From the NCBI RefSeq assembly GCF_036507355.1, contig NZ_AP027877.1: 64,000 bases of DNA; one strand, given 5' to 3'. This document shows positions 20,646-51,356 of the stretch, piece by piece. Positions within the stretch are counted from its first letter, which is position 1. Each line of letters opens with the position of its first letter. The stretch comes from Escherichia coli. Its GTDB lineage: Bacteria > Pseudomonadota > Gammaproteobacteria > Enterobacterales > Enterobacteriaceae. Position numbers and translations under genes: made by a program. The notes under the pieces were generated by a model. The model was not told the origin of the DNA. It did not search any database and saw only the letters and a program-made list of their open reading frames with translations.

Positions 20646-20669
20646 TCCCGAATTGACGGTTAACTCGGG

Positions 20670-20702
20670 CATTCCCCTCTCCCCTTCGGGCTGAGGGGAA
20701 TG
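20670..20702. other. Stable inverted-repeat hairpin between convergent yaeH and cdaR
   Basis: CATTCCCCTC / GAGGGGAATG 10-bp arms around a 13-nt loop; no clear U-tract on either strand. Confidence 0.4.
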
Positions 20703-36918: not shown

Positions 36919-39453
36919 TTAATTACTACCAAACATATCTTTAATCCAACCGGCTACACCGTCGCTGTCTTTCTGCTCTTGCTGAGCAGGTTGCTGTTGC
37001 GGTTGTTGCTGCGGCTGAGAAGACTGATCAAACGGATTGCCTGACGGTTGCTGCTGCATCTCACTCTGCTGGCACAGCGATTGCGGATCGCTGGTCCAGA
37101 CCGGCAAGACACGCATGCCACCGCTGCAAACAAAGTTGCCGTCGTAGTCCACGCCCATATCTGCAATATCTTCTGGCGGAACAAGATTCAGCGGTGTTGG
37201 CGTCTGGTTAGCCAGATAACGCTGATAAATCGACATTGCCCCGCTGGCTCCATACAGTTTGGTCGGCTGGTTGTTATCACGGCCTACCCAGGTGATGGTC
37301 ACCGTGCTGCCGTCAATGCCCGCAAACCAGGTATCTACGTTATTGTTGGTAGTCCCTGTTTTCCCTGCCAGATGCAGGTTCGGGTATTTCGCCCCAAGCT
37401 GACGACCCGTACCGCGTTGTACCACCTGCTGCATGGTCCATAGTGTCAGATACGCCGCCTGCGCCGGAACAGCGCGTTCCGCCTGCGGGAAGCTCTGATA
37501 CAGCACTTTGCCATCTTCCGCGATTACCGAACGCAGCGCAGAAAGCGGTGCACGGTTACCACCGCTGGCGATGGTCTGGAATGCCTGCGCCACTTCGATT
37601 GGCGTTAAGTTCAACGCCCCCAGCAGCATTGCCGGAACCGGATGCAACTGATCTTTCGGTACGCCCAGTTTAATCCAGGTATCCGTAACCGCAGGCAGCC
37701 CCAGCGCCATCCCCAGATTTACCGTCGGCACGTTCATCGAACGGGTCAACGCATCCACCAGCATCACTCTGCCGCTTTCGCTATAACGACGGTCATCGTT
37801 CTGCGGTGACCAGACCTGGCCATTCGGCTGACGCAGCGCAATTGGCGCATCCGCAATCCACGTATTCAGACGATAGATTTTCGGCTGGCTTAAGGCCGTC
37901 AGATAAGTCGCTGGTTTTGCAAGGGAACCAATCGAACGACGCGCCTGCATCGCACGGTTGTAGCCCGCAAACTGCGGCTCAGAACCTCCGACCATCGCAC
38001 GAACTTCACCACTAAAGCGGTCGACGACCACAATCGCAGTTTCAAGATCGCTCAACTTACGCTGTTTCTTCAGTGCAGGAATGCCTTCCACGGCGGCTTT
38101 TTCTGCCGCGTCCTGGGCCACCGAGTCAAAGGTAGTGAAGATCTTCACGCCGGAGAGATCTTTTACCTTATCGCCTAATTTCGCTTGCAGCTCCTGACGC
38201 ACCAATTGCATAAAGGCTGGCTGTGGAGAGATTACCCCACCGCGCGGCTGAACCCCCAGCGGACGCGCACTCAACATGTCATAGAGTTCTTGATCAATAA
38301 TCTGTTGCTGTTGCAGCAGACGCAGTACCAGATTACGTCGCTCCAGCGCCAGTTTCGGGTTACGCCACGGGTTGTAGATGGACGCTCCTTTCACCATACC
38401 GACTAACAGCGCCTGCTGATCGAGGCTCAATTCTTCTACCGGGCGACCAAAGTAATACAAGCTCGCCAGCGGGAAGCCGCGGATTTCGTTGTCGCCACTC
38501 TGACCGAGATACACCTCGTTCATATACAGCTCAAGAATACGGTCTTTGCTGTAACGCGCGTCCATGATCAGCGCCATGTAAGCTTCGTTCGCTTTACGCC
38601 AGTAAGAGCGCTCGCTGGAGAGGAACAGGTTTTTCACCAGCTGTTGCGTCAGCGTACTCGCCCCCTGCACCGTGCGTCCGGCTGTCAGGTTTGCCAGCAC
38701 CGCACGTCCGATGGAGTAGAGACTGATTCCATCATGCTCGTAGAAATGGCGGTCTTCTGTCGCCAGCAAAGTATCCACCAGCAAATCCGGGAAACCACTG
38801 CGCGGCACAAACAAACGCTGCTCACCGTTTGGTGAGGAGATCATGGTGATCAGACGCGGATCAAGACGGAAGAAACCGAACTGACGGTTGTTCTCCATAT
38901 TGACGATCGTCGCCAGATGATCGCCATCAAAGGTCAGACGCGCGCGCACCTGTCCTTCTTTACTGTCCGGGAAATCAAACGGACGGCGAATCATCTCAAT
39001 GCTGTTGGCCTTCACGGTAAATTCGCCAGGACGGGTCATTTTTGACACCTGACGATACTGGGTTGCCTCCAGCAGCTTCACCATTTCGTTCTTGCTGATG
39101 GTCATGTCTGGCTCAAGGTTGACCATTCGGCCATAAACTGCCGCAGGCAGTTGCCAGACCTTGCCATCAATACGGCTGCGAATTTTTTGATCGAGATAAA
39201 CGCCGTAAATGGCGATCAGCACGGCAAAAACGATAGCCAGTTTTAACAGCAGCCATAGCCAGCCGCGTTTGCCACGAGGCTTACGCCCTTTGCCTTTGCC
39301 CTTACCTTTGCGCGGCATCGGTTCTTCATCCTCATAGTCATCATAATCGTCGTAATCATCGTCATCTTCGTAACGACGACGGCTTACCTTTTGTTTGACC
39401 GGACGCGTCGGTTTCCCTTTGCGTCCAATTGGCTCGCGGTCATTCCCGGCCAT
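36919..39453 (-). CDS. mrcB: Penicillin-binding protein 1B (bifunctional glycosyltransferase/transpeptidase)
   Basis: ORF 36919..39468; 844-aa product from [15 protein letters not shown]; acidic/basic N-terminal tail, TM helix, GT51 and transpeptidase domains. Confidence 0.95.
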
Positions 39454-39540
39454 GCTTTTTCTCCGCAATATTCAGGCGCAAAAGCCCGATTTTCTGTTCT
39501 TCTGTTACAAGACAGAAGAAGATATCTCTCAAAATTTGCT

Positions 39541-39640
39541 TTTCTCCCTCTCCCTGTGGGAGAGGGCCGGGGTGAGGGCATCAGCGCGCACATTACCCCT
39601 CACCCTATCCCTCTCCCCATAGGGGCGAGGGGACTGCTCA
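39541..39640. repeat. GC-rich palindromic intergenic repeats (REP/BIME-like) between hrpB and mrcB
   Basis: Three adjacent imperfect palindromes: CTCTCCC-TGT-GGGAGAG; GGGTGAGGG...CCCTCACCC; CCCTCTCCCC-ATA-GGGGCGAGGG. Confidence 0.4.
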
Positions 39641-39648
39641 TACCCGTT

Positions 39649-42078
39649 TTACGAATACTTTTTCGTCCGTCGCGTCGGTGCCGTGTTTGCCGGGTCGTCC
39701 GGCCAGACGTGTTTGGGATAACGCCCTTTCATCTCCTTTTGCACCTCACGATACGCCCCTTTCCAGAAGGCCCCCAAATCACGCGTGATTTGCAGCGGCC
39801 TTTGGGCAGGGGAAAGCAACTCCAGCACCAGCGGCACGCGCCCCTGGGCGATCGTCGGATTGGTGGCCTCACCAAACATCTCCTGCATTCTCACCGCCAG
39901 CGCGGGCGGGTTATCTTCATGATAACGAATGGCGATCCGGCTTCCCGTCGGCACAGTGTAATGCGCAGGCAATTCACTATCCAGACGTTGCTGCATTCCC
40001 CAATCAAGTAATCCGCGTAGTGCCTGATAAATGTCGAGTGATTTCAGGCCGCGTAGTGAATGTACACCGGCCATATGTGGCAGCAGCCACGTTTCCAGCG
40101 TCCCCAACAAACTTTCAACATCAACCGCTGGCCAGTCATATTCTGGCAACCACTTTCCGGCGCATAACAAACGCAAGCGTAGCTGTTCCGCTTCCGCCGT
40201 CCAGTTGAGCACGCTTAAACCTTTATCACGGATGCCGTTAAGCATCGCCTGATGCAACTCGTCTTCTGACGGTTTCGCCAACGGCTGCACTTTCACCGTC
40301 AACTGACCGATTTGCAGCCGACGCCAGGCTTTCAGCGTACCTTGCGCGTCATCCCATTCCACGGTGTCAGATTGCTGCACCAGCTGCGGACAGCGTCGCA
40401 CTAATTCATCAATATCGACCGGTAGCGCCAGTAAAATCCGCGCATCCGGCGAGGCGCTGCCCTGCAATAATAACGGTGCGATCAACCATTCGTGGCGGCT
40501 TAGCGCGTCGTCGGCATCGAGCATCGCTCCCATGCCGTTTGCCAGTTGATAGCGTCCATCTTGCCCACGGCGGCGAGCAATGCGATCGGCAAACGCCCCG
40601 GCAAGTAGCAGCGCGATAAGCGAACTGTCTGCCTCACCGCCGCGTACGTTTAAGCGTTTTAACAGTTGCTGACTACGTTGCTGCCAGGCTGGTTGATTGC
40701 GCGAAAACGCCACGCCCAAGTCACTATTGCCCATCCGTGGCGGCTCTTCGAGAATGGCGGCAATTTTTGCCGCGGTAGCAGCTTCGTCGTCGCTCTTTGC
40801 GCTAACCAGCATTGCCGCTAAACGCGGATCGTTACCCAGCGCTGCCATTTTTTGCCCCTGCGCACTAAGCCGTTCACCGTCCAGCGCCCCCAGCATCTTT
40901 AACAGGCGTTTCGCGGCCAGTAAATTCACTGCTGGCGGTTGATCCAGCCAGCTCATCTGCGCCGGATCGCTGCATCCCCATTGCAGTAATTCCATCAGCA
41001 AACCGGAAAGATCGCTTTGTAATATTTCCGGTTCACTTTGCGCCGCGGCGCGTTCTGCTTGTTCCTTGGCGATTAAATGCAGGCAGATACCCGGCTCCAG
41101 ACGCCCGGCGCGCCCGGCACGCTGCGTCATGGATGCCTGGCTAACGCGTTGAGTAATCAGTCGCGTAAGCCCCGTGCGCGGATCAAAACGCGCCACACGC
41201 TCCTGGGCACAATCCACCACCAGACGAATACCTTCAATGGTTAAACTGGTTTCAGCAATATTGGTCGCCAGCACCACTTTGCGCATCCCTTGCGGTGCCG
41301 GGAGGATCGCTTTTCGCTGATCGTTCAGCGACAACGCGCCATACAGCGGGCAGAGCAATACATCACTGCCGATGCGCGAAGCCAGTTGTTCCTGCACACG
41401 CTGAATTTCTCCGACGCCAGGTAAAAATAACAGTAATGATCCGCTTTCCTGACGCAGCATTTCAGCGGTGGCTACCGCAACGGCATCGTCAAAACGCTGA
41501 TGCGTGGGCAGCGGTAAATAACGGCGTTCAACCGGAAACGAGCGCCCTTCTGAGATGACGACGGGCGCTTCTGGCAGCATTTGCTGCAAGCGGTCGTTGT
41601 CCAGCGTAGCCGACATAATCAGCAGTTTAAGGTCATCACGCAGACCTTGTTGCACATCGAGTAACAGCGCCAACGCCAAATCCGCCTGCAAGCTACGCTC
41701 ATGAAATTCATCAAGGATCACCAATCCAACACCGCTCAGTTCCGGGTCACGCTGGATCATCCGCGTCAGCACGCCTTCGGTAACTACTTCCAGGCGGGTA
41801 TTCGGCCCGACGCAGTTTTGCGCACGCATCCGGTAGCCAACGGTATCGCCTGGCTTTTCGTTAAGCAGCTCCGCCAGCCGTTGCGCGACATTACGCGCCG
41901 CCAGACGACGCGGCTCCAGCAGGATAATTTTCCCGTTAATGCCGGGATGCGCCAGCAGTTGCAGCGGCAGCCAGGTTGATTTCCCGGCCCCGGTCGGCGC
42001 ACTTAATAATACCTGCGGCGCACAATCGAGAGCGGTAAGTAATTCAGGTAAGACGGCAGCAACGGGCAACGACGACAC
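39649..42078 (-). CDS. hrpB: ATP-dependent RNA helicase HrpB (DEAH-box)
   Basis: ORF 39649..42123; Walker A APTGAGKST, DEFH box; 809-aa product if started at GTG 42078. Confidence 0.9.
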   Translation of the reverse strand: MSSLPVAAVLPELLTALDCAPQVLLSAPTGAGKSTWLPLQLLAHPGINGKIILLEPRRLAARNVAQRLAELLNEKPGDTVGYRMRAQNCVGPNTRLEVVTEGVLTRMIQRDPELSGVGLVILDEFHERSLQADLALALLLDVQQGLRDDLKLLIMSATLDNDRLQQMLPEAPVVISEGRSFPVERRYLPLPTHQRFDDAVAVATAEMLRQESGSLLLFLPGVGEIQRVQEQLASRIGSDVLLCPLYGALSLNDQRKAILPAPQGMRKVVLATNIAETSLTIEGIRLVVDCAQERVARFDPRTGLTRLITQRVSQASMTQRAGRAGRLEPGICLHLIAKEQAERAAAQSEPEILQSDLSGLLMELLQWGCSDPAQMSWLDQPPAVNLLAAKRLLKMLGALDGERLSAQGQKMAALGNDPRLAAMLVSAKSDDEAATAAKIAAILEEPPRMGNSDLGVAFSRNQPAWQQRSQQLLKRLNVRGGEADSSLIALLLAGAFADRIARRRGQDGRYQLANGMGAMLDADDALSRHEWLIAPLLLQGSASPDARILLALPVDIDELVRRCPQLVQQSDTVEWDDAQGTLKAWRRLQIGQLTVKVQPLAKPSEDELHQAMLNGIRDKGLSVLNWTAEAEQLRLRLLCAGKWLPEYDWPAVDVESLLGTLETWLLPHMAGVHSLRGLKSLDIYQALRGLLDWGMQQRLDSELPAHYTVPTGSRIAIRYHEDNPPALAVRMQEMFGEATNPTIAQGRVPLVLELLSPAQRPLQITRDLGAFWKGAYREVQKEMKGRYPKHVWPDDPANTAPTRRTKKYS

Positions 42079-46454: not shown

Positions 46455-46930
46455 CAGTGGCGTATATTGCCATAGGCAGCAATCTGGCCTCTCCGCTGGA
46501 GCAGGTCAATGCTGCCCTGAAAGCATTAGGCGATATCCCTGAAAGCCACATTCTTGCCGTTTCTTCGTTTTACCGCACTCCACCGCTGGGGCCGCAAGAT
46601 CAACCCGATTACTTAAATGCAGCCGTAGCGCTGGAAACCTCTCTTGCCCCTGAAGAGCTACTCAATCACACTCAGCGTATTGAGTTACAACAAGGTCGCG
46701 TCCGTAAAGCGGAACGCTGGGGACCGCGCACGCTGGATCTCGACATCATGCTGTTTGGTAATGAAGTAATAAATACCGAACGCCTGACCGTTCCGCACTA
46801 CGATATGAAGAATCGTGGATTTATGCTGTGGCCGCTGTTTGAAATCGCGCCGGAGTTGGTGTTTCCTGATGGGGAGACGTTGCGTGAAATTTTACATGCA
46901 AGAAAATTTAGTAAATTAAACCAGTGGTAA
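46451..46930 (+). CDS. folK: 6-hydroxymethyl-7,8-dihydropterin pyrophosphokinase
   Basis: 159-aa [66 protein letters not shown]; overlaps pcnB stop by 4 nt. Confidence 0.95.
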
Positions 46931-47076
46931 TTTATTAATTTCGTGAATATAAATAATTTCCGAAAATCACATCATTCCAATTCCCAAACCAATCCTATTA
47001 GAGTAGACACTAGCTACATCAATTAATATTTAAATGCATCCTACCCATCTCCTTACACGAAACATCTCCATTTTGA

Positions 47077-47117
47077 AATTTAAATTTACTTAACCCTGAT
47101 TTAAGTAAATTTAAATT
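47077..47117. promoter_or_regulatory. 17-bp perfect palindrome in AT-rich yadN upstream region (candidate operator)
   Basis: AATTTAAATTTACTTAA -7 nt spacer CCCTGAT- TTAAGTAAATTTAAATT; ~175 bp upstream of yadN start. Confidence 0.4.
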
Positions 47118-47290
47118 GCTCAAGTAACTTTAAAATGCACAATATGCGTCCTAATGAGGAATGATTGTAAATTTAGGTAACAAACAATCATTTCTCATTA
47201 ATGTTTGAATATATCTTTATATATTTGAGCCATGAATAGTCATACTTCAAATTAATGAACTACCTTATGGAATATTATTCAAGGATTATT

Positions 47291-47875
47291 ATGTCGAAAA
47301 AATTAGGTTTTGCGCTGTCCGGCTTGATGTTAGCAATGGTTGCTGGTAATGCTTCTGCAGCACTGGACGGTGGCCAATTAAATATCAGCGGTCTGGTAGT
47401 TGATAACACCTGTGAAACCCGTGTTGATGGTGGCAACAAAGATGGCCTGGTGCTGCTGCAAACTGCAACTGTTAGTGAAATCACTGCAGGCGTACTGAAT
47501 GACACCGTAGGTGCTAAAGCTAAACCTTTCAGCATCACCGTTGACTGCAGCAATGCGAACCCGAATCCTGGTAGCACTGCTAAAATGACCTTCGGTTCCG
47601 TGTTCTTTGGCAATAGCAAAGGGACTCTGAACAACGATATGTCTATTAATACCCCGGCTGATGGTGTAAATATTGCCCTGCACAATATTGATGGTTCTAC
47701 TATCAAACAGGTTCAAATTAACAACCCAGGTGATGCTTACATTAAAACCATGGATGCAACCTCAAAAACTGCAACTTTTGATTTTAAAGCATCCTATGTT
47801 CGTGCTGAAACAAGCACAGCACCAACTGCTGGTTATGTTAAAACCAACACTGCATATACCATTACTTACCAGTAA
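47291..47875 (+). CDS. yadN: Fimbrial major subunit-like protein YadN
   Basis: ORF 47255..47875; 194-aa product from [23 protein letters not shown] (signal peptide), fimbrial subunit C-terminus ...YTITYQ. Confidence 0.85.
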
Positions 47876-47980
47876 TCATTCGTTAGATTCATAAAACGAA
47901 TATATTTGGGAGATAACATTCAACTTACTTAGTAGTGGAATATTACTCCCTATTTTAATTAACTCTGTCAGGAATGGTTT

Positions 47981-48721
47981 ATGTTTTTAAACGCTAAACA
48001 TACTGCAGCATTATGTTTCGCCGCTTGTATGAGTTTGAGTACATCGGCAATAGCAGATATCGTAATTTCAGGAACTCGCGTAATTTATAAAAGCGATCAA
48101 AAAAGCGTGAACGTTCGTCTGGAAAATAAAGGGAATAATCCGTTACTTGTTCAGAGCTGGCTGGATACTGGCGACGACAGTGCTGAACCGGGGAGCATTA
48201 AAGTTCCATTTACCGCCACCCCACCGGTTTCACGTATTGATGCCAAACGTGGTCAAACCATTAAATTGATGTACACGGCTTCTTCGCCTCTGCCAAAAGA
48301 CAGAGAAAGTGTTTTCTGGTTTAACGTACTTGAAGTTCCACCCAAGCCTGACGCCGATAAAGTCGCTAATCAGAGCCTTCTGCAATTAGCTTTCCGTACG
48401 CGTATCAAACTGTTTTATCGCCCGGAAGGTTTAAACGGACTGCCAACTGATGCACCAGCTGCACTGAAATGGTCATGGACAACCTCTGCTGGCAAAACTG
48501 CATTGCGCGTCGCAAATCCGACGCCGTATCACGTGTCATTCAGTAGTGGTGATTTAGTCGCCAATGGCAAAACCTACCCACTGGACGTCAAAATGGTGGC
48601 CCCGCTGAGTGAAGAAACCTTCTACATAAAAGGCATGAGTGGTAAAGCAAGTTCGGCAAAAGTGCATTTCTTCGCCATAAATGACTTTGGTGGCGCAATT
48701 GAAGGCAATGCCAGCCTGTAA
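47981..48721 (+). CDS. yadV: Periplasmic fimbrial chaperone (PapD-like)
   Basis: 246-aa ORF, signal peptide, RVIYKSDQKSVNVRLENKGNNPLLVQSW chaperone N-domain. Confidence 0.9.
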   Translation: MFLNAKHTAALCFAACMSLSTSAIADIVISGTRVIYKSDQKSVNVRLENKGNNPLLVQSWLDTGDDSAEPGSIKVPFTATPPVSRIDAKRGQTIKLMYTASSPLPKDRESVFWFNVLEVPPKPDADKVANQSLLQLAFRTRIKLFYRPEGLNGLPTDAPAALKWSWTTSAGKTALRVANPTPYHVSFSSGDLVANGKTYPLDVKMVAPLSEETFYIKGMSGKASSAKVHFFAINDFGGAIEGNASL

Positions 48722-48755
48722 CTAAATCAGGAATAAACGCAGCAGGAAGCACAAC

Positions 48756-51356
48756 GTGTCCAGAAAAATCATAAAAACGCATAATAACAAACTTACTTAT
48801 ATAGCCTCGTTTTGCGCATTGCTGTTAAGCCCCTGTGCCATAAGCGCTGAACACGTTGAATATGATAATACCTTTTTGATGGGGCAAGATGCTTCTAACA
48901 TCGACCTTAGTCGGTATACCGAAGGTAACCCTACCTTGCCCGGCGTGTATGACGTCAGTGTTTATGTCAACGATCAACCAGTTATCAGCCAAAGCATCTC
49001 CTTTATTACCCTCGAAGGTAAGAAAAATGCGCAGGCTTGTATCACGCTGAAGAATTTATTGCAATTTCACATTAACCAGCCTGATATAAAAGACGAGAAT
49101 GCCATCCTTCTTCAACGAGAAGAAGAGCTAGGGGACTGTCTCGATCTGGGGAATGTTATTCCTCAAGCTTCCGTTCATTACGACGTTAATGATCAACGAC
49201 TGGACATCAACGTTCCTCAAGCCTGGGTAATGAAGAATTACCAAAACTATGTTGATCCATCATTGTGGGAAAACGGTATTAACGCTGCAATGCTGTCCTA
49301 CAATGTCAACGCATATCACAGCGAAATACCAGACAGAAAAAACGACAGTGTTTATGCGGCATTTAACGGCGGTATAAATCTGGGGGCATGGCGGCTTCGT
49401 GCCACCGGTAACTACAACTGGATGACCGATGCAGGCACTAATTACGATTTTCAAAATCGCTATTTGCAGCGCGACCTGGCCTCTTTGCGTTCACAGTTAG
49501 TTGTGGGTGAGTCATACACAACTGGGGAAACCTTTGATTCTGTCAGTATTCGCGGTGTTCGCTTATACAGTGACAGCCGAATGCTACCACCTACATTAGC
49601 CAGTTTTGCGCCAATTATTCATGGTGTTGCTAACACCAACGCAAAAGTCACCATTACCCAGGGTGGTTATAAAATCTATGAAACTACCGTGCCGCCGGGC
49701 GCATTTGTCATTGATGATGTAAGCCCATCAGGCTACGGCAGCGATCTCATTGTCACAATCGAAGAGTCTGATGGCACAAAGCGAACTTTTTCCCAGCCAT
49801 TTTCTTCGGTCGTTCAGATGTTACGTCCAGGTGTGGGAAGATGGGACATCAGTGCAGGTAAGATCTTAAAAGACGATATTCAAAATGAGCCTAATTTGTT
49901 CCAGGCCAGTTATTACTATGGTCTGAACAACCTCCTGACGGGGTATACCGGTATTCAGATTACCGATAATAACTATACTGCCGGGCTGCTTGGTCTTGGT
50001 CTGAATACCACATACGGTGCGTTTTCAGTCGATGTAACCCATTCAGATGTGCAAATTCCGGATGATAAAACCTACCGGGGGCAAAGCTATCGCCTTTCCT
50101 GGAATAAGTTATTTGAAGATACCAGAACTTCGCTCAATATCGCGGCTTACCGTTATTCTACCCAGAATTATCTGGGGCTTAACGATGCCCTGACACTGAT
50201 CGACGAAGTAAAACATCCTGAACAGGACCTGGAACCTAAAAATATGCGTAACTATTCTCGCATGAAAAATCAGGTTACGGTCAGTATTAACCAACCGCTG
50301 AAATATGGAAAGGAAGACTACGGCTCATTCTATCTTTCCGGAAGTTGGTCTGATTATTGGGCTTCCGGTCAAAATAATACCAATTACTCCCTCGGCTACA
50401 GTAACAGCGCATCGTGGGGCAGCTACAGCATTAGTGCTCAGCGCTCCCGGGATCAAGACGGCGATAATGAAGATAGCATCTATCTAAGCTTTAGTATTCC
50501 TATCGAAAAATTACTGGGTACAGAACATCGTAATTCTGGTTTTCAGACCATTGATACTCAGTTAAGTAGTGATTTCGATGGCAGCAACCAACTCAGTATC
50601 AGTAGTAGTGGTTTTAGCGACGATAACCGTATCAGTTATAGCGTCAATACGGGCTATTCGATGATGAAGTCCAGCGATGATTTGAGCTATATCGGTGGGT
50701 ATGCGAGCTATGAATCTCCCTGGGGAACACTTGCCAGTTCAGTTTCCGCCAGCAGCGATAATAGCCGTCAGATCTCATTTAATACCGATGGTGGATTTGT
50801 TTTGCATAGCGGCGGCCTGACCTTCAGTAATGATAGCTTCAGCGATTCCGATACTTTGGCGGTTATACAAGCGCCAGGAGCTAAAGGGGCACGCATTAAC
50901 TATGGTAATAGCACGGTAGACCGTTGGGGATATGGCGTTACTAATGCACTTTCGCCATACCATGAAAACCGAATTGCACTCGATATTAACGGTCTCGAAA
51001 ATGACGTTGAGCTGAAAAGTACCAGTGCTGTTGCCGTACCACGCCAGGGGTCTGTTGTCTTTGCTGGTTTTGAAACTGTCCAGGGGCAATCGGCTATCAT
51101 GAACATCAAGCGTACAGATGGTAAAAACATTCCGTTTGCCGCTGATATTTATGACGAAAACGGCAATATCATTGGTAACGTTGGGCAAGGTGGTCAGGCC
51201 TTTGTTCGAGGTATAGAACAACAAGGCAATATACGAATCAACTGGCTTGACGAGGGTAAACCTGTTACTTGCCTTGCTCATTACCAACAGAGCGCAGCAC
51301 CAGAAAAAATAGCGCAATCTATTATTTTGAATGGAATTAGTTGTCAGATTCAGTAA
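48756..51356 (+). CDS. htrE: Fimbrial outer-membrane usher protein
   Basis: 866-codon ORF (GTG start), usher family (PapC/FimD-like). Confidence 0.9.
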   Translation: MSRKIIKTHNNKLTYIASFCALLLSPCAISAEHVEYDNTFLMGQDASNIDLSRYTEGNPTLPGVYDVSVYVNDQPVISQSISFITLEGKKNAQACITLKNLLQFHINQPDIKDENAILLQREEELGDCLDLGNVIPQASVHYDVNDQRLDINVPQAWVMKNYQNYVDPSLWENGINAAMLSYNVNAYHSEIPDRKNDSVYAAFNGGINLGAWRLRATGNYNWMTDAGTNYDFQNRYLQRDLASLRSQLVVGESYTTGETFDSVSIRGVRLYSDSRMLPPTLASFAPIIHGVANTNAKVTITQGGYKIYETTVPPGAFVIDDVSPSGYGSDLIVTIEESDGTKRTFSQPFSSVVQMLRPGVGRWDISAGKILKDDIQNEPNLFQASYYYGLNNLLTGYTGIQITDNNYTAGLLGLGLNTTYGAFSVDVTHSDVQIPDDKTYRGQSYRLSWNKLFEDTRTSLNIAAYRYSTQNYLGLNDALTLIDEVKHPEQDLEPKNMRNYSRMKNQVTVSINQPLKYGKEDYGSFYLSGSWSDYWASGQNNTNYSLGYSNSASWGSYSISAQRSRDQDGDNEDSIYLSFSIPIEKLLGTEHRNSGFQTIDTQLSSDFDGSNQLSISSSGFSDDNRISYSVNTGYSMMKSSDDLSYIGGYASYESPWGTLASSVSASSDNSRQISFNTDGGFVLHSGGLTFSNDSFSDSDTLAVIQAPGAKGARINYGNSTVDRWGYGVTNALSPYHENRIALDINGLENDVELKSTSAVAVPRQGSVVFAGFETVQGQSAIMNIKRTDGKNIPFAADIYDENGNIIGNVGQGGQAFVRGIEQQGNIRINWLDEGKPVTCLAHYQQSAAPEKIAQSIILNGISCQIQ

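Follow-up and report, generated by a model that had tools for sequence, protein, structure and literature searches.

The hrpB-mrcB spacer and its palindromes

The window that we analysed is a stretch of 64,000 nt of Escherichia coli DNA from contig NZ_AP027877.1, and all coordinates are those of the window unless they are given for K-12 or MG1655. Positions 39470-39660 are 100% identical to several complete genomes in which hrpB and mrcB are annotated, and this annotation bears out an earlier sequence-only reading of the window, which had placed a palindromic element between these two genes. Both genes lie on the minus strand, and the intergenic spacer between them measures 195 nt: the hrpB stop codon is at 39649-39651 (-; TAA in the window and in K-12-type alleles, TGA in alleles that are free of the element), and the ATG start codon of mrcB (PBP1b) is at 39451-39453 (-). 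The element is wholly contained within this spacer, beginning 3 nt past the hrpB stop codon, with its first stem beginning 16 nt past it.

Three imperfect palindromes had been described here from the sequence, and all of them are indeed in place, but they are not independent units. The hairpin CCCTCTCCC TGT GGGAGAGGG has arms at 39546-39554 and 39558-39566 that are complementary at 9/9 positions; a pair of 21-nt arms, at 39558-39578 and 39597-39617, is 86% complementary and includes the pairing of GGGTGAGGG (39570-39578) with CCCTCACCC (39597-39605); and a pair of 10-nt arms, at 39596-39605 and 39623-39632, is 90% complementary. A third local hairpin, CCCTCTCCCC ATA GGGGCGAGGGG, occupies 39609-39632 with one mismatch. 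Together these palindromes are one quasi-perfect three-block palindrome, of the form C1 G1 G2 / C2 C1' G1', which can fold in alternative ways, into three local hairpins or a single long one.

The palindromes at 39540-39645 exceed chance. The 64-kb window contains the word GGGAGAGGG 4 times, where 0.24 would be expected, and 0/100 shuffles reach that count; the composite CCCTCKCCC-N3-6-GGGRGAGGG has 3 occurrences in the window, all at the hrpB-mrcB locus, and an expectation of 0.00. Folded as DNA into three local hairpins, the element of the window reaches -26.6 kcal/mol (z = -3.9), and folded as hrpB-sense RNA into one long hairpin it reaches -58.7 kcal/mol (z = -4.3); the corresponding value for the K-12 hrpB-mrcB element is -74.2 kcal/mol (z = -7.5). 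The terminal hairpin of the sense RNA is CCCUCUCCC-loop-GGGAGAGGG in both the window and the K-12 alleles, and in the window the fold places this last hairpin, CCCUCUCCC ACA GGGAGAGGG, at 39546-39566 (-).

An additional 9-bp stem-loop upstream of mrcB, also picked out by the earlier reading, is present at 39497-39520, where the AT-rich arms TTCTTCTGT and ACAGAAGAA (39497-39505 and 39512-39520) are complementary at 9/9 positions around a 6-nt loop, 44-67 nt upstream of the mrcB ATG. This stem is weak (-10.1 kcal/mol, z = -1.4, with 21/200 shuffles folding equally well) and is unchanged across seven aligned alleles apart from one T/C in the loop. Since it sits within about 90 nt of near-invariant sequence beside mrcB, it is to be counted with the upstream region of mrcB, outside the repeat.

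A BoxC pair and its relatives

Judged by its letters, the element is an inverted pair of BoxC units, a family that has also been named PIT, TMECO (intrastrand triplex) and HPGQ. The motif was first named BoxC in the 1990s and was found again in 2000 as PIT, for potential intrastrand triplex (PMC4666352). Table 1 of Holder 2015 (PMC4666352) holds 23 TMECO units in MG1655, and two of these are in the hrpB-mrcB spacer: TMECO no. 1, CCCTCTCCCTGTGGGAGAGGGCCGGGGTGAGGGC, of type B, at 164,547-164,580 (+), and TMECO no. 2, of type A, at 164,631-164,597 (-). In Kaplan 2016 (PMC5100583), G-rich 21-mers are described as HPGQ motifs, and the hrpB-mrcB spacer holds nos 5 and 6 of these. The published coordinates of both papers do map to the hrpB-mrcB spacer, and so the view of the element as a dispersed, intergenic and 'known' palindromic repeat was correct, the motif being both multi-copy and published. 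It is already known even at hrpB-mrcB, and the flipped allele and the link to Term-seq data described below are minor additions.

The likeness to the BoxC/PIT/TMECO units lies in the order of their parts, namely a C block (CCCTCTCCC or CCCTCGCCCC), a loop of 3-5 nt, GGGAGAGGG, a 3-nt loop and GGGTGAGGG, with A and B units on opposite strands; in the window the type-B unit is on the plus strand and the type-A-like unit on the minus strand. The second loop is TTA in type A and CCG in type B, and it is ATA in the type-A-like unit of the window. The window pair also shares with the TMECO pair its locus (MG1655 164,547-164,631), an identical type-B half and strain variation of the same kinds, in which units are missing, mutated or collapsed to a hairpin. 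It differs in being flipped with respect to the flanking genes, a state absent from the main text of Holder 2015, and in its second unit, which in K-12 is a perfect type A with a TTA loop.

The whole inverted pair spans 106 nt, at 39540-39645, from a TTTTCT end to a GACTGCTCATACCC end. The T-rich end TTTTCT (39540-39545, +) stands ahead of the type-B unit, as it also does in the K-12 hrpB, alx and gcvP copies, and a conserved 4-nt T-rich tract likewise precedes the C block of HPG2 (Kaplan 2016, PMC5100583). The type-B unit itself, CCCTCTCCC TGT GGGAGAGGG CCG GGGTGAGGG C at 39546-39579 (+), is letter-identical to TMECO no. 1. The central spacer ATCAGCGCGCACATTA (39580-39595) is the loop of the long hairpin and marks the short-spacer subtype, and beyond it the type-A-like unit CCCTCGCCCC TAT GGGGAGAGGG ATA GGGTGAGGGG, at 39596-39631 (-), has one mismatched block and would be of the 'A mm' class of Holder but for its second loop, which is ATA and not TTA. 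Finally, the A side carries a terminal extension, GACTGCTCATACCC, at 39632-39645 (+).

When the window copy is aligned with the K-12 pairs at hrpB, fepB-entC, ygfF-gcvP and alx-sstT, this extension aligns with GACTGTCTGAGCAC at gcvP, GACTGACCGAGTCC at alx, GACGGATTGTGCGC at fepB and GACCGATCGAGCAC at the K-12 hrpB copy. Because these 14 nt beside hrpB align with the ends of other copies, they are part of the element, hence the span 39540-39645. The unequal ends (G)TTTTCT ... GAC TGNCNGAGCAC are common to all K-12 paired copies, giving a layout of (G)TTTTCT, type-B unit, spacer, reversed type-A unit and GAC TGNCNGAGCAC, and in three long-spacer copies the right end runs on as TTTTGT..TTTGTCAT. 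Among the aligned pairs the short central spacer is found only in the hrpB-mrcB copies, of K-12 and of the window, and the spacers of the fepB, gcvP and alx pairs are about 11 nt longer. In short, the BoxC pair is a discrete unit whose ends are unequal and whose length is about 106 nt.

Comparison with other described repeats helps to fix its identity. The likeness to HPGQ lies in the G-rich 21-mers GGGAGAGGGTTAGGGTGAGGG and GGGAGAGGGCCGGGGTGAGGG: the latter, at 39558-39578, is HPG2, and the other arm is HPG1 with TTA changed to ATA (four G-runs). Kaplan reads these motifs as a switch between G-quadruplex, hairpin and duplex, whereas the match made here is one of sequence alone. In Enterobacter sp. 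638, Taghavi 2010 (PMC2869309) reported 100 CCCTCTCCCXX(X)GGGAGAGGG hairpins, which are alike in their 9-bp stem, in their TGT/ACA loops and in often standing two or three together at gene 3' ends; they differ in being simple hairpins for which a terminator role was presumed, with the third block and its pairing undescribed. A scan of 38500-40500 with Rfam at a permissive E-value returned no family, since even the best of its hits, which were microRNA-hairpin noise, scored 29 bits where the gathering score is 72.

The sequence-only reading had favoured a REP/BIME-type element, and on this point it has to be corrected, for the locus carries no REP consensus and the motif is BoxC. The 30-nt REP consensus, of the GCCGGATG...CATCCGGC type, has no match with up to 3 mismatches anywhere in the window, and the 14-nt REP tail, with up to 2 mismatches, has none at the locus and two weak matches in the window, at 1794 and 57465. 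REP/BIME elements are similarly short, GC-rich, intergenic imperfect palindromes in many dispersed copies and often in 3' UTRs, but their sequence is unrelated, their copies number hundreds per genome against about 20 for BoxC, and their RAYT transposase and their binding of gyrase and IHF have no reported counterpart in the literature of the BoxC family.

A count of copies, which had been proposed earlier as a check, finds that the repeat is not unique: E. coli genomes have a median of 17 BoxC places and a maximum of 29 (n=5,407 genomes), and 81,299/81,350 of these places are on chromosomes. Of 72,556 plasmid records 185 carry the element, and many of these 185 are in fact chromids, or chromosomes under a wrong label; 50,697 phage records contain 3 partial matches. 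A type-B unit identical to that of the window lies near argF in K-12 (289,246), where it is solo and has a different continuation. Further afield, an exact scan with GGGAGAGGGNNNGGGTGAGGG over one genome per species gave at least 120 stretches from about 16 genomes; the matches listed come from alpha-, gamma- and delta-proteobacteria, Verrucomicrobia, Nitrospirales, Armatimonadota and Candidatus Gracilibacteria (CPR), and among them nearly all have the upstream C block and several are inverted pairs. The motif class has been reported in more than 260 genomes (Holder 2015, PMC4666352).

Allele states at hrpB-mrcB and their possible origins

The element had been thought 'probably conserved', and at this locus it is not. 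Junction-specific searches over 5,426 complete E. coli genomes found an element-free 93-bp spacer (CGTGAAGACCAAAGCAAATTTGAG) in 1,865 (34%), a K-12-type junction in 3,507, some of which have collapsed and keep one hairpin, and the window-type junction, in which the copy is flipped, in 31. The collapsed alleles, of 131/132 bp, have lost whatever lay between the two CCCTCTCCC hairpins and retain a single hairpin, and the alx locus has alleles that collapsed in the same way. The element is therefore dispensable at hrpB-mrcB, where element-free, forward, reverse and collapsed states all occur, and its absence from a third of strains argues against its being required there to insulate the mrcB promoter. 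A 'palindrome effect' and an excess of variability around the motifs have been described (Holder 2015, PMC4666352), and both the raised divergence in the hrpB 3' end and the allele series fit that picture of variability.

In the window the whole unit, unequal ends included, is reversed with respect to hrpB and mrcB, whereas the type-B unit of K-12 is on the gene-sense strand. The type-B half is identical between the window and K-12 at 58/58 positions, in reversed orientation, while the A half and the flank differ at many positions, and it is by coincidence that indels of -4, +1 and +3 nt cancel to give a 195-nt spacer in both. Over 1.5 kb of flanking hrpB sequence, any two of the three haplotypes (window, K-12 and element-free) differ to about the same extent, 3-6%, and so the allele states are old and do not stem from one recent rearrangement. 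A simple in situ inversion of the K-12 allele is ruled out by the differences in the A half, by the cancelling indels and by the distance between haplotypes. Inversion through the two small terminal hairpins is ruled out as well, since it would have kept the outer ends (TTTTCT and GAC...) unflipped, and yet they are flipped. Nor does an identical source copy for the flipped allele exist elsewhere in E. coli, the window-specific junction occurring at most once per genome.

It is tempting to ask whether the pair is a mobile, MITE-like element that some enzyme has inserted, or re-inserted, in both orientations. Like MITEs such as Correia/NEMIS and ERIC, which are palindromic, non-coding, about 100-190 nt long, present or absent by strain and co-transcribed with their neighbours, it is a palindromic element with a presence/absence polymorphism (1,865/5,426 genomes being element-free). 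The co-existence of element-free and filled states, the latter in both orientations down to the unequal ends, the conservation of those ends in all paired copies, the age of the three about equidistant hrpB haplotypes and the multi-copy occurrence of the motif in many phyla would all suit such a reading, as would the fepB-entC locus, at which 186 nt flanked by a TAA/TAAT direct repeat are missing from a short allele. However, hrpB-mrcB itself shows no clean target-site duplication, and a replacement, not a simple insertion, separates the element-free allele from both filled ones; the fepB and alx pairs gave no flipped class and display only presence/absence, collapse and replacement; and the motif is near-absent from phages and rare on true plasmids. 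BoxC is also without a known parent transposase, its core motif is common to several phyla, which would be unusual for a MITE, and Holder 2015 (PMC4666352) found no link to mobile elements. Hairpin-driven deletion and recombination can, moreover, account for most of the alleles. We regard mobility of this kind as an unlikely explanation.

RNA 3' ends and the probable role of the hairpin

What, then, might the element do in RNA? The earlier reading had pointed to transcript 3' ends as a useful check, and one such end does map 5 nt past the K-12 copy: the curated Term-seq data of Adams 2021 (PMC7815308) place a 3' end at 164,636 (+), 5 nt past the last G of the element (...GGGAGAGGGGACCG). From 161,708 to 176,994 the M63 sheet lists no other 3' end in between, and this one is weak, with 987 reads in M63 only, one of three growth conditions. 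We looked up the other 17 K-12 BoxC sites in the Term-seq table by 100-nt bins, and 3 of these 17 (making 4/18 overall) have ends 4-12 nt past a CCCTCTCCC/GGGAGAGGG-type hairpin: that of fepB at 624,567 (-), with 50,301 reads; that of lldD at 3,781,065 (+), which is the primary lldD end and is flagged as Rho-dependent; and that of ppiC-ilvC at 3,959,467 (-), with 28,044 reads. A rough and informal estimate puts chance coincidences at about 0.1 (some 2,500 entries over 9.3 Mb of strand), or below 1 once enrichment in spacers is allowed for. A nearby 3' end is absent from the table at 13/17 of the other K-12 sites, for which low transcription alone might account, and the 3' ends that do occur may be incidental and not selected, since any stable hairpin can mark one. 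We found no cross-reference of Term-seq data with BoxC in the literature on the element.

These ends bear directly on the proposal, made with the REP/BIME assignment, that the element is an intrinsic terminator of hrpB that also insulates the mrcB promoter. A GC-rich, genome-repeated palindrome just past the hrpB stop codon, with a Term-seq 3' end at its K-12 copy, is what one would hope to see in that case, and a terminator role was presumed for the same hairpins in Enterobacter sp. 638 (Taghavi 2010, PMC2869309). The details are nevertheless unfavourable, for the element does not look like an intrinsic terminator. A promoter and terminator scan gave nothing: terminator-like sites number 0 on both strands of 39300-39800, with no hairpin followed by a T-run on either strand. 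Past its last stem the sense RNA reads AGAAAAGCAAA / AGAAAAGCAAAUUUUG, with no U-tract. Earlier reporter work, as it is cited in PMC4666352 (ref. 41 there), saw neither promoter nor terminator activity, and no in vivo effect. To these must be added the absence of a REP consensus, the 34% of genomes that manage with no element at the locus, and the lldD end, whose position in a Rho-dependent region speaks for trimming back to the hairpin rather than for termination there. A REP/BIME-type intrinsic terminator with an insulating role is, in our view, improbable.

REP RNA hairpins are known to block 3' exonucleases and so to set the 3' ends of mRNAs, and this offers a useful analogy. Three observations together favour an exonuclease barrier over a terminator: U-tracts are missing, the reporter tests were negative, and the lldD end carries a Rho flag. 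The BoxC hairpin is most likely a barrier to 3' exonucleases after termination downstream, much as REP hairpins are, and is unlikely to be a terminator itself. By analogy with K-12, the hrpB RNA of the window strain is predicted to end near 39541-39542 on the minus strand, about 4-5 nt past the last hairpin, and a role as mRNA stabiliser for hrpB, as was suggested from the sequence, is plausible given 3' ends that are associated with such hairpins. The ends at 4/18 K-12 sites temper the view that the family has no effect on expression.

A rather different idea is that of a structural switch in the DNA, a triplex of the G-rich strand for Holder or a G-quadruplex for Kaplan, by which transcription or replication in the neighbourhood of hrpB and mrcB would be modulated. 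Each unit does have four G-runs and three complementary blocks, and in vitro the isolated G-rich consensus strand forms an intrastrand triplex (Holder 2015, PMC4666352) and gives the CD signatures of hairpin and G-quadruplex (Kaplan 2016, PMC5100583). Set against this, the double-stranded form is only duplex and shows no DMS footprint protection in vivo (PMC4666352), there is no bias in the function of flanking genes or in the distance to neighbouring genes (Holder 2015, PMC4666352), and the absent, collapsed and flipped states at this very locus are hard to square with a tuned local regulator. We give a switch at hrpB-mrcB little credence.

A last proposal, that the spacer encodes a real 68-aa protein of which the repeat is coding sequence, we consider very improbable indeed: PMC10869245 (Biofilm, 2024) places the 68-aa 'protein D8B36_18480' between hrpB and mrcB and reports that its expression from pUC19 cuts csgA expression 18-fold, and the K-12 spacer does hold exactly one ORF of 68 aa (TTG start, MVFSLSLWERAGVRA...; presumed to be D8B36_18480 as the sole ORF of that length there), which at least 1,000 contigs carry as an annotated hypothetical, in many cases cut off by the end of the contig, yet the RefSeq annotation of MG1655 does not include it, its N-terminal half is a translated BoxC pair, its frame is lost in the window (where there is a different ORF, of 69 aa), it is impossible in the 93-bp spacer of 34% of genomes, and the phenotype might be due to the DNA or RNA of the clone, or to the region upstream of mrcB. 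The 68-aa ORF is probably not a real gene.

We are therefore left with a reading that we hold to be likely, though well short of certain, in which the element is a structure-prone, unstable and probably selfish BoxC repeat whose hairpin, in the 3' UTR of hrpB, probably blocks exonucleases. The pair would have no essential role specific to the locus and would persist as a selfish or near-neutral sequence, and its palindromic, slippage-prone DNA would give rise to deletions and rearrangements around itself. Whenever hrpB is transcribed, the element would form the 3' UTR of the message, and after termination further downstream the very stable hairpin would halt 3'-to-5' exonucleases, so that the message would end a few nucleotides beyond its last CCCUCUCCC/GGGAGAGGG stem. 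As the pair is nearly its own reverse complement, its effect in RNA should be alike in both orientations, which would explain why the flipped allele is tolerated. Counting against this reading, the recurrence of the exact motif, with many copies, in distant phyla is not obviously explained by a purely selfish, function-free repeat.

There is also a bolder version, to which we assign only a small chance, in which the BoxC pair is a discrete unit that is still able to move or turn over and its hairpin is a general, orientation-independent determinant of mRNA 3' ends. Were the pair truly a mobile unit, an activity that recognises its ends would be implied, and such an activity, if real, could explain how a three-block core of 30 nt comes to be multi-copy in at least six phyla, Gracilibacteria included. 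Were the hairpin truly a 3'-end determinant, this would contradict the published view that the family has no effect on gene expression. In itself, a catalogued repeat at a catalogued site, missing there in a third of strains, matters little. It is of modest use in that the hrpB-mrcB locus furnishes a clean natural series of alleles, element-free, forward, reverse and collapsed, for the effects of BoxC on mRNA and on genome stability.

The three-block core beyond Escherichia coli

The exact three-block core (C block, loop, GGGAGAGGG NNN GGGTGAGGG) is present in multiple copies per genome in at least six phyla, with at least 120 matching stretches (loci L007-L126) from about 16 genomes. Among the matches listed, the phyla carrying the exact core include Armatimonadota and Verrucomicrobia, an AT-rich Candidatus Gracilibacteria MAG accounts for at least 18 core matches over at least 17 stretches, and one unclassified MAG has the core embedded in a larger repeat unit, roughly 100 nt in length.

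A BoxC pair at fepB-entC and a BoxC-like hairpin at cdaR-yaeH

In the fepB-entC spacer (K-12 locus L129, 624,380-624,880), roughly one in two E. coli genomes lacks a 186-nt block that carries a BoxC pair, that is, an inverted pair of these dispersed palindromic units. A TAA/TAAT direct repeat borders this block, whose outer flanks look, by eye, like inverted copies of one another. Strong Term-seq 3' ends (Adams 2021, PMC7815308) flank the pair inside the fepB upstream region, one at 624,680 just before it and the other at 624,567, which is 12 nt after it and 57 nt short of the start codon of fepB.

A BoxC-like hairpin, CATTCCCCTC TCCCCTTCGGGCT GAGGGGAATG, lies between the convergent cdaR and yaeH genes (window 20668-20700) and folds at -23 kcal/mol, both strands alike. 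Its K-12 counterpart is the same hairpin with two bases of the inner part changed, and it is absent from the TMECO units of MG1655 in Table 1 of Holder 2015 (PMC4666352). This hairpin may terminate transcription in both directions, or it may be what is left of a collapsed BoxC family member.

The hrpB-mrcB spacer and its surroundings

The roughly 90 nt 5' of the mrcB ATG (window 39454-39535) are nearly invariant across all spacer alleles, whereas neighbouring hrpB sequence shows 3-6% variation. This segment, which includes a perfect 9-bp palindrome (TTCTTCTGT-N6-ACAGAAGAA) and in which a simple scan detected no promoter-like hexamers, probably serves as promoter or 5' UTR of mrcB, or as the binding site of a regulator.

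Across the last 1.5 kb of hrpB (window 39649-41150), differences from K-12 increase towards the spacer (15, 17 and 26 per 500 nt), against 0-7 per 500 nt over the greater part of the interval 157.5-163 kb. Here the haplotypes of the window, of K-12 and of EC958 lie at about the same distance from one another, and the sequence comparison points to old, recombining haplotypes adjoining the repeat. Separately, the fimbrial genes from yadN to htrE (window ~46600-50000) diverge from K-12 by 12-27% (62-135 differences per 500 nt), unlike most other 500-nt bins compared, which have fewer than 20; this is a variable fimbrial operon with no bearing on the BoxC finding.

In K-12, a 68-aa ORF with a TTG start crosses the spacer on the + strand (L001:238-444; window counterpart region 39440-39648), and the translated BoxC pair forms its N-terminal half. 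It is probably the 'D8B36_18480' protein, whose overexpression was reported in 2024 to repress curli (PMC10869245). Because the frame is not kept in the window's flipped allele and is impossible in the 93-bp element-free allele, the ORF is probably spurious, and the curli phenotype ascribed to D8B36_18480 may instead have its source in the DNA or RNA.
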